A DNA stretch of 64,000 bases from Gemmatimonadota bacterium. GTDB lineage: Bacteria > Latescibacterota > UBA2968 > UBA8231. Where the stretch lies: NCBI GenBank assembly GCA_038128265.1, contig JAYPJE010000008.1, forward strand, positions 1-64,000. The letters run 5' to 3'. The translations under genes were made by a program, and so were the position numbers. Under the pieces are notes generated by a model. That model did no database searches. It saw only the letters and a program-made list of their open reading frames with translations, and had not been told where the DNA came from. Shown here piece after piece: positions 1-5,677 of this stretch (the first letter of the stretch is position 1; each line of letters starts with the position of its first letter).

Positions 1-629
1 TGCGCAACGGACAGTTTTACGGCATGTTTTCCTCGCCGCCGGGCAATCCCACCGATCGCTCCGACGAGTTGGTCGAGCGCTTTCGCGTCATGTTTGGACC
101 CGTGATGGAAGTGGCCGAAGACCTCGATATCAAGGTCTCGCTCGACGTGGCCGTGCGCATGGGGCAGATCGGCTGCAACCCAGAGATGTGGGAAAAAATC
201 CTCGACGCTGTTCCCTCGCCCCACCTCGGTCTGTCCTGCGACCCATCGCACTGGCTGTGGATGGGCATGCTGCCCGTTGAAGACGTTATTCGCGACTTTG
301 CCGGCAAATGGTATTTCGCCGACGTCAAAGACTGCGAGATCAGCGAGCGCATGCGCTACCGCCAGGGCATTATCGGCAACTGGTGGTGGCAGTATCGGGT
401 ACCCGGCCGCGGCCAGCTCAACTGGGCCACCATTATCGGTGCCCTACTCGAATCGGGCTACGGCTATGTGCTATGCGTGGAGAACGAGGACCGCGGCTTT
501 CCCGGCCTCGAGGGCTTTGCCTATGGCTGCAAACACCTGCGCCAGTTCCTGCCGCCCAGGGGCTCCGACTACGCACGCCCGTCACAGCACTGGAAAACGA
601 GCTCGTGGGAGCGACGCACCGACGTCTGA
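1..629 (+). CDS. Sugar phosphate isomerase/epimerase family (xylose isomerase-like TIM barrel), 5'-truncated
   Basis: C-terminal AP_endonuc_2-type motifs: DPSHWLW, DVKDCE, RVPGRGQLNW, GYGYVLCVENED. The frame is probably open past the window edge. Confidence 0.75.
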   Translation, partial: RNGQFYGMFSSPPGNPTDRSDELVERFRVMFGPVMEVAEDLDIKVSLDVAVRMGQIGCNPEMWEKILDAVPSPHLGLSCDPSHWLWMGMLPVEDVIRDFAGKWYFADVKDCEISERMRYRQGIIGNWWWQYRVPGRGQLNWATIIGALLESGYGYVLCVENEDRGFPGLEGFAYGCKHLRQFLPPRGSDYARPSQHWKTSSWERRTDV

Positions 630-633
630 TGGC

Positions 634-661
634 TTGACTTCAGAGCGTATTGCGCTATCCT
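634..661 (+). promoter_or_regulatory. sigma70-like promoter of the glnS leader
   Basis: TTGACT (634-639), N16, TATCCT (656-661), immediately after the upstream stop codon. Confidence 0.55.
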
Positions 662-697
662 TAAGTGCACTGCACGACTGACCCTGAGCCGAGTGAT

Positions 698-757
698 ATG
701 CCCATCCGCCAACAACAGCGACAGCAAGAGCCACTGCCATTATCCGTCGGCGGATAG
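698..757 (+). CDS. Putative Gln-rich attenuator leader peptide MPIRQQQRQQEPLPLSVGG (19 aa)
   Basis: ATG at 698, codons CAA CAA CAG CGA CAG CAA (710-727), TAG at 755-757. Lies between the promoter and a terminator upstream of glnS; SD is weak. Confidence 0.75.
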   Translation: MPIRQQQRQQEPLPLSVGG

Positions 758-789
758 TCCTGTGCACCAGCAAACCACTTTGCAAAACC

Positions 790-825
790 AGCCCGCTGCC
801 GACTCCGCGCAGCGGGTTTTTATTT
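790..825 (+). terminator. Attenuator terminator (3:4 hairpin) in the glnS leader
   Basis: Stem CCCGCTGC (792-799)/GCAGCGGG (809-816) followed by TTTTTATTT (817-825), about 50 nt before the glnS start. Confidence 0.8.
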
Positions 826-877
826 GGCCCGAGCGCGAACCCAGCGTGGAGTCGGCGCGGCTTGTAAACGAGGAACT

Positions 878-2593
878 ATGAGCGACGCAAAAACGGATCG
901 CGGTAGCGAACAAGACGGCACCGAAACAGTGCGCGACTTTCTGCGCGAAGAAATTGACTCCGACCTCCAAAGCCGGCGCTACGACGCCGTCGTAACCCGC
1001 TTTCCTCCCGAGCCTAACGCCTATATGACGATTGGCAACGCCAAGGCCATCTGCATCAACTTTGGCATAGCCGCCGAGTATGGAGGGCGCTGCCACCTGC
1101 GCTTTGACGACACCAATCCAGCGCGCGAGGAGCAGGAGTTCGTCGACGCCATTAAGGAAGATATTCGCTGGCTCGGCTTTGACTGGGGTGAGCACGAGTA
1201 CTACGCCTCGGACTACTTCCCGCAGCTTTACGAATGGGCCGTCGCGCTGATCGAGAAGGGCCTGGCCTACGTAGACGACCAGTCGGCCGACGAAATACGC
1301 GCCAACCGCGGCACGCTCACCGAACCCGGCACCAACAGCCCGCACCGCGAGCGCACGGTCGAGGAAAATCTCGACCTCTTCGAGCGCATGAAAAACGGCG
1401 AGTTTGCCGACGGCGCCAAGGTGCTGCGCGCCAAAATCGACATGGCCTCCGCCAACATCAACCTGCGCGATCCCGTCATGTATCGCATTCTCCACATGCC
1501 TCACCACCGCAGCGGCGACCAGTGGTGCATCTATCCGATGTATGACTGGGCGCACGGCCAGAGCGATTCGCTGGAGGGCATAACCCACTCACTGTGCTCG
1601 TACGAATTTGCCAACAACCGCCCGCTCTACGAATGGTTTATCGAACAGTTGGGCATCTTCCCCTCGCGCCAAATCGAGTTTGCGCGCGGCAATATAACGT
1701 ATACCGCACTGTCTAAACGCTATATTCGCGAGATGATGGAACGGGGCATTATCAGCGACTGGGACGATCCGCGCACCTACACGCTGCGCGGCCTGCGCCG
1801 ACTGGGCTGCCCGCCCGAAGCCGTGCGCCGCTTCTGGCGCGAAGTGGGCGTCGCCAAGCGCGATAACAACATCGACATCGCACTCCTCGAGTACTGCATG
1901 CGCGACCAGCTCAACCGGACGGCGCTGCGCCGCATGGCCGTGCTGCGACCGCTCAAAGTCGTTATTGAAAATTATCCAGAGGGCGAGAGCGAATTGCTCG
2001 AAGCGGTTAACAACCCAGAAGACGAGCGGGCGGGCACGCGCCAGGTGCCCTTTTCGCGCGAGCTCTACATTGAGCGCGAAGACTTTATGGAAGATCCGCC
2101 GCGCAAGTTTTTCCGCCTGGCACCGGGCCGCGAAGTGCGCCTGCGCTACGCCTACTTTATCACCTGCACCGACGTCATAAAAGACGAAAAGGGCGAGGTC
2201 GTCGAGCTGCGCTGCACCTACGACCCGGCCACGCGCGGCGGCGACGCACCCGACGGGCGCAAGGTAAAGGCCACGCTGCACTGGGTCTCCGCCCAGCATG
2301 CCGCCCAGGCGGAAGTGCGCCTCTATGACCGCCTGTTCAAGGTGGAAAACCCGCGTAAATTTCCCGAGGGCGGCAGCATTATCGATAACGTCAACCCCGA
2401 CTCGCTCGAGGTCATTTCGCCGGCGTATCTGGAGCCCGCCCTAACCGAAGCCGCGCCGGGCGACGCCTTCCAATTCGAGCGCATCGGCTATTTTTGCGCC
2501 GACGCCAAAGACCACGAAAGAGAGCACCCAGTATTTAACCGCACGGTCACGCTGCGCGACACCTGGGCACGCGTGCAAAAACAGGGCGCATAA
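878..2593 (+). CDS. glnS: Glutamine--tRNA ligase (divergent HIGH motif)
   Basis: [65 protein letters not shown] at 878 follows GAGGA. Confidence 0.95.
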
Positions 2594-2611
2594 GGCCCCA
2601 CTCGCAGAGCG

Positions 2612-2650
2612 CAGAAACGGCTCGGGTTAACGAGAGCCCAAGCCGTTTCC
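2612..2650. terminator. Hairpin between convergent glnS and gltX
   Basis: GAAACGGCT...AGCCGTTTC inverted repeat with an inner GGGTT/GAGCCC stem; only short U tracts. Confidence 0.45.
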
Positions 2651-2731
2651 AAACGCCTTGTTTTCAACGCGATCAAGGAGCCTGTATAGAGGGGTGCCGC
2701 TGGCCAATTACCTGCTGCACCGCCAACAGGC

Positions 2732-4225
2732 CTAAGAGGCGGACGGAGGCTTCTTCCACTCCTTTTCCAGCTTGGTCGCCTTCTTTTTTGACAGCCCACC
2801 CAGCGCGTTCATCGCCTGCAGCAGGCGCATGCGCACGATGTCTTGTCCCAACAGATGCGCGGTGTCAAAAAGCGGCGGGCCGACGCGCGATCCAACTAGC
2901 GCAGCCGTCAGCGGAACCGTTACATCGCGCACCGGCCAGGACCAGTACTCGGCCAGCGAGCGCACGGCCGACTCGATACCTTCGCGGTTCCATTCCAACA
3001 GAGCATCAAACGTCCAAATAGCCGTCTGCAGCATTTCAACTGCCTCTTCTGGTGCCCGCTTTTTGGGCACCAGGTCGTCAGCGACAGGCGCAACTTCGCG
3101 CGCCCAAAAAAACGCCGCCTTGGGCATAAAGTCTCCCAGCGTTTCCATGCGCTGCTGCAGCAGCGGAACGATCTGCCCAACGAATTCGTCGTTGAGCATC
3201 CACGCCTTTAGCTCGTCTAATACCTGCTCTGCCGTGCGCTCTTCGCGCAGATAGCGACCGTTGAGCCAGTTGAGCTTTTCCAGATCGAAAATCGACCCCC
3301 CGAGATTGATCCGGTCGGCATCGAAATGCTCGGTGAGCTGTGCAAAGCTAAACTTCTCCTCTTCTCCCAGCGGTGGGTACGCCATGAGCGCCAGGTAGTT
3401 GAGCAGCGCATCGCTGAGATAGCCCGCACGGCGATAGTACTCGATGGAGGTGGGATTGCGCCGCTTGGACATCTTGGTGCCGTCGGGGTTGAGCAAGAGC
3501 GGCAGGTGCATATACTCGGGCGGCTGCCAGCCAAAAGCCTCGTATAGAACCAGGTGTTTCGGCGTCGAGGTAATCCACTCTTCGCCGCGAATTACGTGCG
3601 TAATGCGCATGTGGTGATCGTCGACAACGGCGGCCAGGTGATAGGTCGGAAAACCGTCCGACTTTAACAGCACCTGGTCATCGGACTGGGCGTATTCCAA
3701 CTCCACGGTGCCGCGCAGGCGGTCGCGCACAACACAGGTGCCTTGCTGAGGCATCTTGAGGCGAATCACGTGTGCCTCGCCGCTGGCTACTCTGCTATCG
3801 ACTTCGTCCTTGGCCAGGTGCATGCAGTGGCGATCGTAGCCCAAACGCTCTCGGTTTTTCGCCTGCTCGGCGCGCAGCGCGCTCAGGCGCTCGGCCGAGC
3901 AAAAGCAGGGATAGGCGTGCCCCGATTCGACCAGTTGGTCGACGTGCTCGCGATACAGTGCCAGGCGCTCGCTCTGGCGATAGGGCCCGTGGGGACCGCC
4001 AATATCCGGCCCCTCATCCCATTCCAATCCGATCCAGCGCAACGACTGTATTAGCGACTCTTCGTACTCTCTGCGCGAACGCGTCTGATCCGTGTCTTCG
4101 ATGCGCAGCACAAACTGCCCACCATACTTCTTGACGTATAGCAGATCGAACAAACCTTGGTAGGCCGTTCCCACGTGAGTGGGCCCCGTCGGCGAGGGCG
4201 CCAGACGCACGCGAACTTCGCTCAT
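2732..4225 (-). CDS. gltX: Glutamate--tRNA ligase
   Basis: RLAPSPTG, HVGT, LRIEDTD, PYRQSER, IRGEEW and KMSKR motifs. Confidence 0.96.
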   Translation of the reverse strand: MSEVRVRLAPSPTGPTHVGTAYQGLFDLLYVKKYGGQFVLRIEDTDQTRSRREYEESLIQSLRWIGLEWDEGPDIGGPHGPYRQSERLALYREHVDQLVESGHAYPCFCSAERLSALRAEQAKNRERLGYDRHCMHLAKDEVDSRVASGEAHVIRLKMPQQGTCVVRDRLRGTVELEYAQSDDQVLLKSDGFPTYHLAAVVDDHHMRITHVIRGEEWITSTPKHLVLYEAFGWQPPEYMHLPLLLNPDGTKMSKRRNPTSIEYYRRAGYLSDALLNYLALMAYPPLGEEEKFSFAQLTEHFDADRINLGGSIFDLEKLNWLNGRYLREERTAEQVLDELKAWMLNDEFVGQIVPLLQQRMETLGDFMPKAAFFWAREVAPVADDLVPKKRAPEEAVEMLQTAIWTFDALLEWNREGIESAVRSLAEYWSWPVRDVTVPLTAALVGSRVGPPLFDTAHLLGQDIVRMRLLQAMNALGGLSKKKATKLEKEWKKPPSAS

Positions 4226-4441
4226 AATCGACTTCCTCTCGAGTGTAAAACCAGCTTAGACAAAGAATTAAAAAGTAAGGAGTTCCACATCAAACGCAAC
4301 GCACCGGGTTTGCATTATTCGTCCCCATACGTCATCTTAAGTGCATAACATGCTGTATGTTCCGCCTCTCGAAGATCGCCGCATCACTCCCATATCAGCG
4401 CCTCCTCGATAGCGACAACGCACCACCACTGAAAGGGTTAT

Positions 4442-5677
4442 ATGCTCTTTAGAGACCTAGACCTACCTGCCGCTGTGCTCAAAGCTCTCGATGAGATGGG
4501 CTACGAGGAGACCACACCTATCCAGGAAAAGACGCTGCCCCACATTTTGGCCGGCAAGGATGTGCTTGGCTTAGCCGAGACGGGCTCGGGCAAAACCAGC
4601 GCCTGCGCCATTCCGCTCGTCTCGAAAATAGACGAGGAAAATCGCGGCATTCAGGTGCTTATTCTCGTTCCCACGCGCGAGTTGGCGCTGCAGTACGTGC
4701 AGGAAGTCGACGAAGTATCCAAACACTCCGGCGTCGTGCCCTTTGCCGTATTTGGCGGATTTGATATGGATATCCAGAAGGCCAAACTCAAGCACGGCGT
4801 GCACATTCTGGTGGCCACGCCCGGACGGCTAATCGACTTGATATGGAATCACCGCCTCGACCTGGAGCAGGTAAAGAGCGTCGTCCTCGACGAAGCCGAT
4901 GAAATGCTCAAAATGGGTTTTATCGAAGACGTCGATTTTATCATGTCCTGCATGATGCAAGAACACCAGACACTGCTATTCTCGGCGACCATGCCCAAAG
5001 AGGTCGAGCGCCTGACGCAGCAGTACCTGCGCGATCCCGAGCGCGTTGAGCTCAACCGCGAGCAGCGCGCGCCGCAGTCGCTCAAACACTATTTCCAGCA
5101 CGTCGGTCGCAACCGCATCGACGCGCTCGTCGAGTACGTCGACGCCAACGACGTCAAACAGGGCATTATCTTTTGCAACTCGCGCGACAAGGCGTCGGAA
5201 CTGCTCAACAGCCTACAAAAGCGCATCCGCTCACTGGAAATTATCCACGGCGGCTTGGACCAAGATCGTCGCACGTCGATTTTTCGCCGCTTTCGCCAGA
5301 AGAAAGTGCGCTTTATGATCGCCACGGACGTAGCGGGCCGCGGACTCGACTTTAGCCACGTAACCCACGTCATCAACTACGACTTCCCGTTCAATCCGGA
5401 AATATACACGCACCGCACGGGGCGGGCCGGACGCATGGGACGCGAGGGAGTGGCCATCACCTTTGTCGGCGATCGCGATCTGACCGAACTCAAGCGCCTT
5501 TTTCGCTCGCATCCCATCGAAGCGCACTGGATCGGCGAGGAGCCCGACCTCGAGGCCGTGCGCGCCAAGCGCAACGGGCGCGGGGGTGGACGTGGGCGCG
5601 GAGGGGGGCGCGGGCGCGGCACCGGACAGCCCCGCGGTCGAAGTGGGAAGGGCAGAAAAGCCGCAGCCAGCACCTAA
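4442..5677 (+). CDS. DEAD-box RNA helicase with RGG-rich C-terminal tail
   Basis: Q motif TPIQ, AETGSGKT, PTRELA, TPGRL, DEAD, SAT, RGLD, HRTGRAGR; tail GRGGGRGRGGGRGRG. Confidence 0.95.
   Translation: MLFRDLDLPAAVLKALDEMGYEETTPIQEKTLPHILAGKDVLGLAETGSGKTSACAIPLVSKIDEENRGIQVLILVPTRELALQYVQEVDEVSKHSGVVPFAVFGGFDMDIQKAKLKHGVHILVATPGRLIDLIWNHRLDLEQVKSVVLDEADEMLKMGFIEDVDFIMSCMMQEHQTLLFSATMPKEVERLTQQYLRDPERVELNREQRAPQSLKHYFQHVGRNRIDALVEYVDANDVKQGIIFCNSRDKASELLNSLQKRIRSLEIIHGGLDQDRRTSIFRRFRQKKVRFMIATDVAGRGLDFSHVTHVINYDFPFNPEIYTHRTGRAGRMGREGVAITFVGDRDLTELKRLFRSHPIEAHWIGEEPDLEAVRAKRNGRGGGRGRGGGRGRGTGQPRGRSGKGRKAAAST

Follow-up and report, generated by a model that had tools for sequence, protein, structure and literature searches.

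The window analysed here is the whole stretch of 64,000 nucleotides (positions 1 to 64,000, forward strand) of contig JAYPJE010000008.1 in assembly GCA_038128265.1, deposited as a Gemmatimonadota bacterium. Near its start lies glnS, the gene for a glutamine--tRNA ligase (GlnRS) in which the HIGH signature reads TIGN, and upstream of glnS is a leader with a short open reading frame (ORF) rich in glutamine codons. HIGH is one of the two motifs by which class I of the aminoacyl-tRNA synthetases is defined, and its histidines act by stabilising the transition state when the amino acid is activated. The gene and the motifs in question are the following.

878-2593, plus strand: glnS, glutamine--tRNA ligase, 571 amino acids (TIGR00440, 689.3 bits; PF00749, PF03950, PF20974)
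870-875, plus strand: Shine-Dalgarno-like GAGGAA of glnS (sequence read directly)
1028-1039, plus strand: TIGN replacing HIGH (E. coli His40-Ile41-Gly42-His43; alignment with E. coli K-12 GlnRS)
1589-1609, plus strand: SLCSYEF (E. coli SLCTLEF; T230S, L231Y; alignment with E. coli)
1706-1720, plus strand: ALSKR, the KMSKS-equivalent loop (E. coli VMSKR; Lys270 kept, V267A, M268L; alignment)
1763-1783, plus strand: DDPRTYT (E. coli DDPRMPT; M290T, P291Y; alignment with E. coli)

The E. coli K-12 GlnRS was taken from NC_000913.3, and residue numbers follow the scheme of the literature, without Met1. The ORF is intact from the ATG at 878 to the stop at 2593. The NCBIfam equivalog model TIGR00440 scores 689.3 bits against a cut-off of 425.8 and is covered over positions 1-523 of 524, and all three GlnRS domains of Pfam are above threshold, the catalytic Rossmann domain PF00749 as well as PF03950 and PF20974 of the beta-barrel anticodon-binding part. 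The protein is 53% identical to E. coli GlnRS and matches the P. aeruginosa GlnRS 5BNZ with E = 1e-216; its AlphaFold model has a mean pLDDT (predicted local distance difference test) of 82. In an 11-sequence alignment that includes E. coli GlnRS the columns of Arg30, Asp66, Tyr211, Cys229, Phe233, Gln255 and Lys270 are invariant, so that ALSKR is a KMSKS-type loop with the catalytic lysine in place. For His40, His43, Thr230, Lys270 and the residues of the other invariant columns we assume the roles generally ascribed to them in GlnRS. Only the class I signature with His at its first and fourth positions is missing, TIGN standing there instead, and the protein is a GlnRS by every other test run. 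The positions read and the alignment with E. coli confirmed in full the TIGN, SLCSYEF and DDPRTYT motifs and the otherwise intact ORF that the first-pass annotation of this DNA had pointed out.

The top NCBIfam model is named "GlnRS/YqeY fusion". It is matched over its GlnRS part only (positions 9-561 of 769), and the window GlnRS has no YqeY domain. Close homologs are publicly named 'glutamine--tRNA ligase/YqeY domain fusion protein', and the 571-amino-acid proteins match the GlnRS part alone. The fusion name is a naming artefact.

TIGN was found in all seven genus genomes that carry the gene, the own genome counted, and 34 of the 120 nearest proteins in the database have it too; because of this recurrence it is not a sequencing slip. 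The remainder of the 120 read TIGH (12), TIGS (1), HIGN (7), HIGS (3) and HxGH (61), with two unparsed. The sister genus is mixed, with TIGH, TIGN, HIGS/HLGS and HIGH. For the wider GlnRS family the best 150 representatives of clusters at 50% identity were taken, 132 of which align over the motif; HxGH is present in 129 of these, HIGS in two and TFGH in one, the TFGH alignment being in two pieces and doubtful. TIGN is the lineage-wide form.

The same annotation had suggested that the enzyme may be an inducible auxiliary GlnRS beside a canonical one, switched on when glutamine charging fails. Such a reading could draw on the glutamine-codon leader with a terminator upstream of glnS, and on the resemblance of an altered ATP site to cases of a second, resistant synthetase, reportedly such as the TrpRS of Streptomyces. 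The canonical second copy that it presupposes was not found in the own genome, of which the assembly is 84% complete in 102 contigs, and only two genes with PF00749 are present there, glnS and gltX. A glnS match was obtained in 39 of 41 relatives, one in each. The survey of the family gave a match in 73 of 76 genomes, single in 72; in the remaining one (G053) the two glnS fragments lie on contig ends and are one split gene, and the three genomes without a match are 73-81% complete. None of the 76 family genomes searched has two glnS genes. The position of the gene is informative in the same respect, and its neighbours are as follows.

24-629, plus strand: upstream gene, a xylose-isomerase-like TIM-barrel protein, a conserved syntenic neighbour (PF01261)
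2732-4225, minus strand: gltX, bacterial glutamate--tRNA ligase (GluRS), convergent with glnS (TIGR00464, 459 bits)

Of 93 loci surveyed, 57 have a homolog of the TIM-barrel gene before glnS, some of them in genera with canonical HIGH, and wherever the flank is long enough in this survey a true gltX follows glnS downstream. The order of TIM-barrel gene, glnS and convergent gltX is common to genera with a canonical HIGH glnS, and the TIGN gene is therefore the positional ortholog of an ordinary glnS. A gene that is single, at the ancestral locus and of one form throughout the genus is not an auxiliary copy, and the back-up reading is hardly credible. The 138-nucleotide gap between the convergent stops of glnS and gltX contains an inverted repeat at 2614-2650 that has no T-run and was not called by the terminator scan; it may be a bidirectional terminator. 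The public names on close proteins and contigs are "Candidatus Latescibacterota" and in some cases "Gemmatimonadota".

The maximum-likelihood tree was built from 190 distinct GlnRS sequences out of 213, after the exclusion of 22 that were duplicates, shorter than 450 amino acids or contained X, and of one fragment without the motif (P0024). The tree contains a clade of 84 sequences with a support of 1.0 and a stem of 0.104. Within it a T-clade of 53 sequences has a support of only 0.56, and the other 31 sequences keep His as the first residue of the motif. Changes on the stem of the 84 were sought in columns with at least 85% conservation among the other sequences. Gly37 is replaced by Ala in 84 of 84 and residue 268 (M/T) by Leu, likewise in 84 of 84; Pro291 has become Tyr in 77, Ser in five and Cys in two; residue 234 has changed to an aliphatic residue and Ser531 to His. 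Leu231 is replaced in the clade by Tyr, His, Asn, Asp or Gly.

The T-clade differs from the remaining 31 in eight columns. Two of them, His40 to Thr and Val267 to Ala, have states that are rare or absent elsewhere in the tree and are located in both signature loops, while the states in the six others (E. coli Ile11, Phe65, Val71, Ser80, Ile81 and Ala170) are also common outside the clade. [quoted passage not shown] Natural intermediates (HIGH, HIGS/HIGN, TIGH and TIGN) persist in sister species. Mapped on the tree, these changes show that the signature of the ATP site was rebuilt in steps along a line of vertical descent, with G37A, M/T268L, P291Y and the loss of Leu231 first, and H40T together with V267A afterwards. 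In GluRS the fourth position is not His either, with HVGT in the window's own enzyme and in those of P. aeruginosa and T. thermophilus, and because it is naturally non-His there, the loss of the first His is the truly unusual step. Among the sister-genus loci L153-L173 one subgroup, nested among HIGS species, again reads HIGH, and there the conserved Tyr38, two residues before the motif, is replaced by His. The explanation is a reversion or else recurrent loss at position 43.

The clustering of several changed positions near the signature motifs on one branch, together with the repeated change of the fourth position, would also be expected if a housekeeping GlnRS had been remodelled under selection by a natural mimic of glutaminyl-adenylate or ATP, TIGN and its companions conferring resistance. 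There is a precedent in a class I enzyme of housekeeping function whose signature is non-canonical and raises the inhibition constant (Ki) up to 1000-fold without catalytic cost (PMC10485003). However, the pattern fits compensated drift equally well, and the fourth position of GluRS is naturally not His. Resistance as the driving force is unlikely on this evidence. The fuller version, in which a natural GlnRS inhibitor yet to be found drove the rebuilding of the ATP/adenylate pocket, with loss of both HIGH histidines and accompanying changes in the KMSKS-type loop and in three further conserved segments, and the glutamine-codon attenuator adds induction when charging drops, deserves little credence. 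We know of no natural GlnRS inhibitor, although no search aimed at one was made.

Several lines of evidence bear on whether an enzyme with this signature is active. Pairwise over the whole gene, the ratio of nonsynonymous to synonymous substitution rates (dN/dS) of glnS against four congeners is 0.07, 0.05, 0.045 and 0.08, and the gene is under strong purifying selection. The own genome has genes for tRNA-Gln(CUG) and tRNA-Gln(UUG). TIGN is catalytically competent in TrpRS. In the own genome a contig end truncates TrpRS, of which the motif region is missing, and trpS of E. coli K-12 was compared instead; its product reads TIGN. The GluRS of the window has Arg at the column of Arg358 in T. thermophilus GluRS, which we take to be the mark of a discriminating GluRS. 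Constraint, kept residues, tRNA-Gln genes, the TIGN of TrpRS and the Arg of GluRS together favour an active and needed GlnRS, and we infer from them that the enzyme would still charge tRNA-Gln.

There are two points on the other side. GatB is genus-wide, so that an indirect route to Gln-tRNA formally remains, and in several class I synthetases the first His of HIGH reportedly contributes about 1000-fold to the rate (PMC10485003). In its strongest form the objection states that the protein is catalytically crippled or repurposed and that Gln-tRNA-Gln is made by GluRS and GatCAB. Both signature histidines are indeed lost, and gatA and gatB, to which the first-pass annotation had directed attention, are present in the own genome; GatB was found in eight of eight genus genomes searched (own included) and in 23 of 25 searched in all. 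Yet GatCAB and GlnRS occur together across the whole class, members with canonical HIGH included, hence GatCAB is not tied to the loss of the motif. A crippled enzyme is also at odds with a dN/dS of 0.05-0.08 over the whole gene, with the intact Lys270 and glutamine-pocket columns, with a GluRS that has the Arg of the presumably discriminating type and with the competence of TIGN in TrpRS. It is very improbable.

GatCAB has another possible function in these genomes. AsnRS is above the cut-off in six of seven congeners and was not found in the own genome, a miss that is probably a gap in the 84% complete assembly. GatCAB as the Asn route of the genus had been deduced from this miss, and the deduction was dropped in view of the six congeners with AsnRS. 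GlnRS, AsnRS and GatCAB thus coexist in the genus, as they do in Deinococcus and Thermus, and the coexistence suggests that GatCAB serves tRNA-dependent asparagine synthesis.

The leader upstream of glnS is composed of the following parts.

634-661, plus strand: promoter-like site TTGACT-16-TATCCT (consensus scan)
698-757, plus strand: leader ORF of 19 codons, of which codons 5-10 (710-727) read Gln-Gln-Gln-Arg-Gln-Gln (ORF scan)
704-710, plus strand: region 1, which can pair with 749-755 and then encloses the Gln codons (free-RNA folds)
746-755, plus strand: region 2, the antiterminator arm, consisting of the last leader codons and the first base of the stop codon (constrained folds)
790-825, plus strand: intrinsic terminator with arms 790-801 and 806-818 and a T-run at 817-825 (scan and folds)

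The promoter lies between the stop codon of the upstream gene and the leader ORF. Both of its hexamers are conserved in relatives, and a sister group without the leader has the same promoter about 35-40 nucleotides before glnS. Five of the codons 5-10 of the ORF are Gln codons and the Arg codon is CGA. The arrangement has the predicted parts of an attenuator, namely a Gln-codon ORF between promoter and gene, a terminator and an antiterminator that can be masked. No Rfam match was obtained over positions 400-4700 at E values up to 1, and a T-box was thus not found.

The occurrence of the leader was determined at 93 loci by scanning up to 650 nucleotides upstream of glnS for ORFs that start with ATG, are 10-45 codons long and have three or more Gln in seven residues. 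A Gln-rich ORF was present in 16 of 24 assessable loci with the T variant (one further locus had too little flank), in one of 25 loci of the clade of 84 with His first, a HIGS species, and thus in 17 of the 49 assessable loci of the clade. It was found in none of 43 loci outside the clade, where the only two scan matches are the C-terminus of the upstream gene. The expected co-occurrence of a TIGN clade with Gln-rich leaders is largely borne out; the 16 T-variant loci agree with it, and the leader of the HIGS enzyme and the eight T-variant loci without one do not. An AT-rich TIGN sublineage and one TIGH group have no leader ORF. In the AT-rich sublineage (L038, L047, L133 and L142), where the start codon of the Gln-rich ORF is lost, the terminator core is located within a perfect hairpin of about 27-36 base pairs, some 60-200 nucleotides upstream of glnS. 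In the tree, leaders occur on both sides within the clade of 84. Most simply, the leader arose once, near the stem on which the changes in the active site also set in, and was afterwards lost at least three times; the proximity of the two origins is a single coincidence and not a correlation.

The loci with a leader are close kin, some of them identical, and gave 14 distinct leaders. The ORFs have 14-25 codons, and ATG, frame and stop are kept through insertions and deletions; an in-frame insertion of 6 nucleotides in the Gln run and exchanges between CAA and CAG are found among them. Conservation of the leader exceeds that of the fourfold sites of glnS in each of the three closest comparisons (0.88 versus 0.75, 0.83 versus 0.66 and 0.74 versus 0.53). 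Searched with a covariance model of the leader, the own genome yielded a single strong match. In the family the strong matches were only before glnS, in nine of 76 genomes; all nine are training sequences, so that the model added no independent members.

When the full leader is folded at equilibrium the terminator is retained in every case, even with ribosome masks. Folds were then run on a transcript ending before the 3' arm of the terminator, with the bases under a stalled ribosome made unavailable. In the window leader, stalling of the ribosome at the Gln codons gives a pairing of 746-753 with 796-803, which is blocked with the ribosome at the stop codon. Under stalling, 6-14 bases of the terminator 5' arm pair with the last leader codons in 14 of 14 leaders (7-8 bases in ten), and the total fold energies are -13.5 to -25.6 kcal/mol; with the ribosome at the stop codon only weak structures of 0 to -7.3 kcal/mol are formed, in which 0-8 bases of the 5' arm still pair. 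Region 2 is located at or within about 12 nucleotides of the stop codon in every leader.

The antiterminator helix is 90% paired across the leaders, compared with 28-69% in slid controls, and has a compensatory change at one pair (CG 6, GC 4, GU 2). For the region 1 helix enclosing the Gln codons, 81% of the cells are paired across the 14 sequences, versus 36-50% when slid. The terminator hairpin alone has about -18 to -24 kcal/mol in the 14 leaders, with compensatory changes at two inner pairs. Support from covariation is modest because the helix cores are invariant.

These properties are consistent with a classical leader-peptide attenuator that probably sets the expression of glnS. If ribosomes stall on the Gln codons, the 3' end of the leader ORF would stay uncovered and could pair with the terminator's 5' arm, giving read-through into glnS, whereas ribosomes that reach the stop codon would cover this segment and the terminator would form. 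We infer translation of the leader and the switching from these conserved parts. The cognate-codon attenuator proposed by the first-pass annotation holds up in so far as promoter, Gln ORF, terminator and competing antiterminator are conserved in the 17 loci of the clade.

Several observations speak against an attenuator. There is no clear Shine-Dalgarno sequence before the leader ATG, just a GAG. The leader sequences are close kin, the invariant helix cores leave covariation thin, and the ORF is missing from eight of the 24 assessable T-variant loci. The equilibrium folds retain the terminator under every mask. The central Arg codon CGA is fixed, and 6 nucleotides of the Gln run are complementary to the 5' arm of the terminator (fold of G020), so that the run could be conserved as RNA and not as codons. 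Such points would fit an element that is not read by ribosomes, in which the hairpin ends the upstream gene, or the CA-rich run serves to bind a small RNA or a protein, the ORF being incidental; the AT-rich sublineage with its hugely extended hairpin and no ORF start codon fits it as well. This explanation does not account for the conserved promoter between the upstream stop codon and the ORF, for ATG, frame and stop being kept through insertions and deletions in peptides of 14-25 codons, or for the constant placement of region 2 close to the stop codon. Leaders with cognate-type codons before thrS, aspS and asd, and the lack of an Rfam match, likewise argue for the attenuator, and an element of the other kind is rather unlikely.

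The leaders of the other genes were found in the same lineage through weak matches of the covariance model. One of these, in the own genome, precedes thrS (TIGR00418). In that genome (G000), at C2:36391-36525 (L188: 1455-1589), an ORF of 44 codons that includes a Thr-rich stretch, followed by a strong terminator (about 1600-1650), is located directly before thrS. The terminator of thrS is kept in six fully assessable congeners and two further genera, and in two AT-rich congeners it is missing or the contig end is reached; a Thr-rich ORF before thrS is present in two congeners, G001 and G005. The element upstream of thrS is a candidate Thr-codon attenuator. In G009 (L206; C1:3794400-3795800, minus strand) two tandem Asn-rich short ORFs, each with its own terminator, precede aspS, the product of which may feed Asn-tRNA synthesis, given the GatCAB of the lineage. 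In G005 (L207; C362:700-4100, minus strand) a Thr/Lys-rich short ORF and a terminator precede a putative asd, identified by eye from an N-terminus like that of aspartate-semialdehyde dehydrogenase. Leader-peptide attenuation thus appears to be a habit of the lineage for synthetase and amino-acid genes. The leaders of thrS, aspS and asd therefore strengthen the attenuator reading for glnS, and they remove the argument that its leader marks a back-up function, as similar leaders precede an ordinary thrS and aspS.

Taken together, the gene is best described as the sole housekeeping glnS of a marine lineage labelled Latescibacterota, with a class I signature remodelled by descent and a probable leader attenuator, a reading to which we assign a probability of about 0.7. 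The part played by the two histidines would fall to Thr and Asn, as in bacterial TrpRS. The enzyme is a real, uncommon natural variant of a well-known one, and its leader is plausibly a new case within a class of control elements that is already known. A sole-copy GlnRS without both histidines is a natural experiment on their dispensability and on the second-site changes that allow their loss, for which G37A, V267A, M268L and P291Y are concrete candidates. After the case of IleRS2 it can also be tested whether a change of the signature motif marks intrinsic resistance to inhibitors. If true, the resistance reading would be the second natural case, after IleRS2, of a class I signature given up in exchange for drug resistance, and would suggest that a natural product directed at GlnRS is still to be discovered. 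The leader would add glnS and glutamine to the synthetases under classical attenuation, and the leaders of thrS, aspS and asd suggest that an uncultured phylum relies on this mechanism.

No report of a TIGN GlnRS or of a Gln-codon leader for glnS was found in the literature searched, which did not include subscription journals. The closest known systems each share a part of the features. Canonical bacterial GlnRS (E. coli GlnS; P. aeruginosa 5BNZ) has the same family, domain order, KMSKS-type Lys and glutamine-pocket columns and is likewise the single copy for translation, but the window enzyme differs from it in TIGN, G37A, T230S, L231Y, V267A, M268L, M290T and P291Y, and in having a Gln-codon leader. 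TrpRS, as in E. coli K-12 TrpS, is a housekeeping enzyme with TIGN at the class I signature; it belongs to another synthetase subclass in which TIGN is the family norm, whereas in GlnRS the motif is recent and convergent, and the likeness is confined to those four residues. The Streptomyces auxiliary TrpRS resistant to indolmycin is said to be a second copy beside the housekeeping one, behind a cognate-codon leader; the leader is the shared feature, and the window GlnRS differs in being the only copy.

For the leader, the known cases are pheM-pheST in gamma-proteobacteria and the candidates trpS and leuS in Streptomyces (PMC1262725). They correspond in promoter, cognate-codon ORF, antiterminator and terminator hairpins and a synthetase gene, and differ in that the leader here has Gln codons, precedes glnS and belongs to another phylum. 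The glnS of Shewanella has a predicted motif of a different kind in its 5'-untranslated region, without a leader peptide (PMC2659441). For the signature, the nearest parallel is IleRS2 with G/AXHH, a natural and widespread housekeeping class I synthetase with a Ki for mupirocin up to about 1000-fold higher (Brkic et al. 2023, PMC10485003). In both enzymes the most conserved residues of the signature are exchanged in co-adapted surroundings; in IleRS2, on the same source, the histidines have moved and the link to mupirocin is measured, whereas in the window GlnRS, known from its sequence, the histidines are lost.

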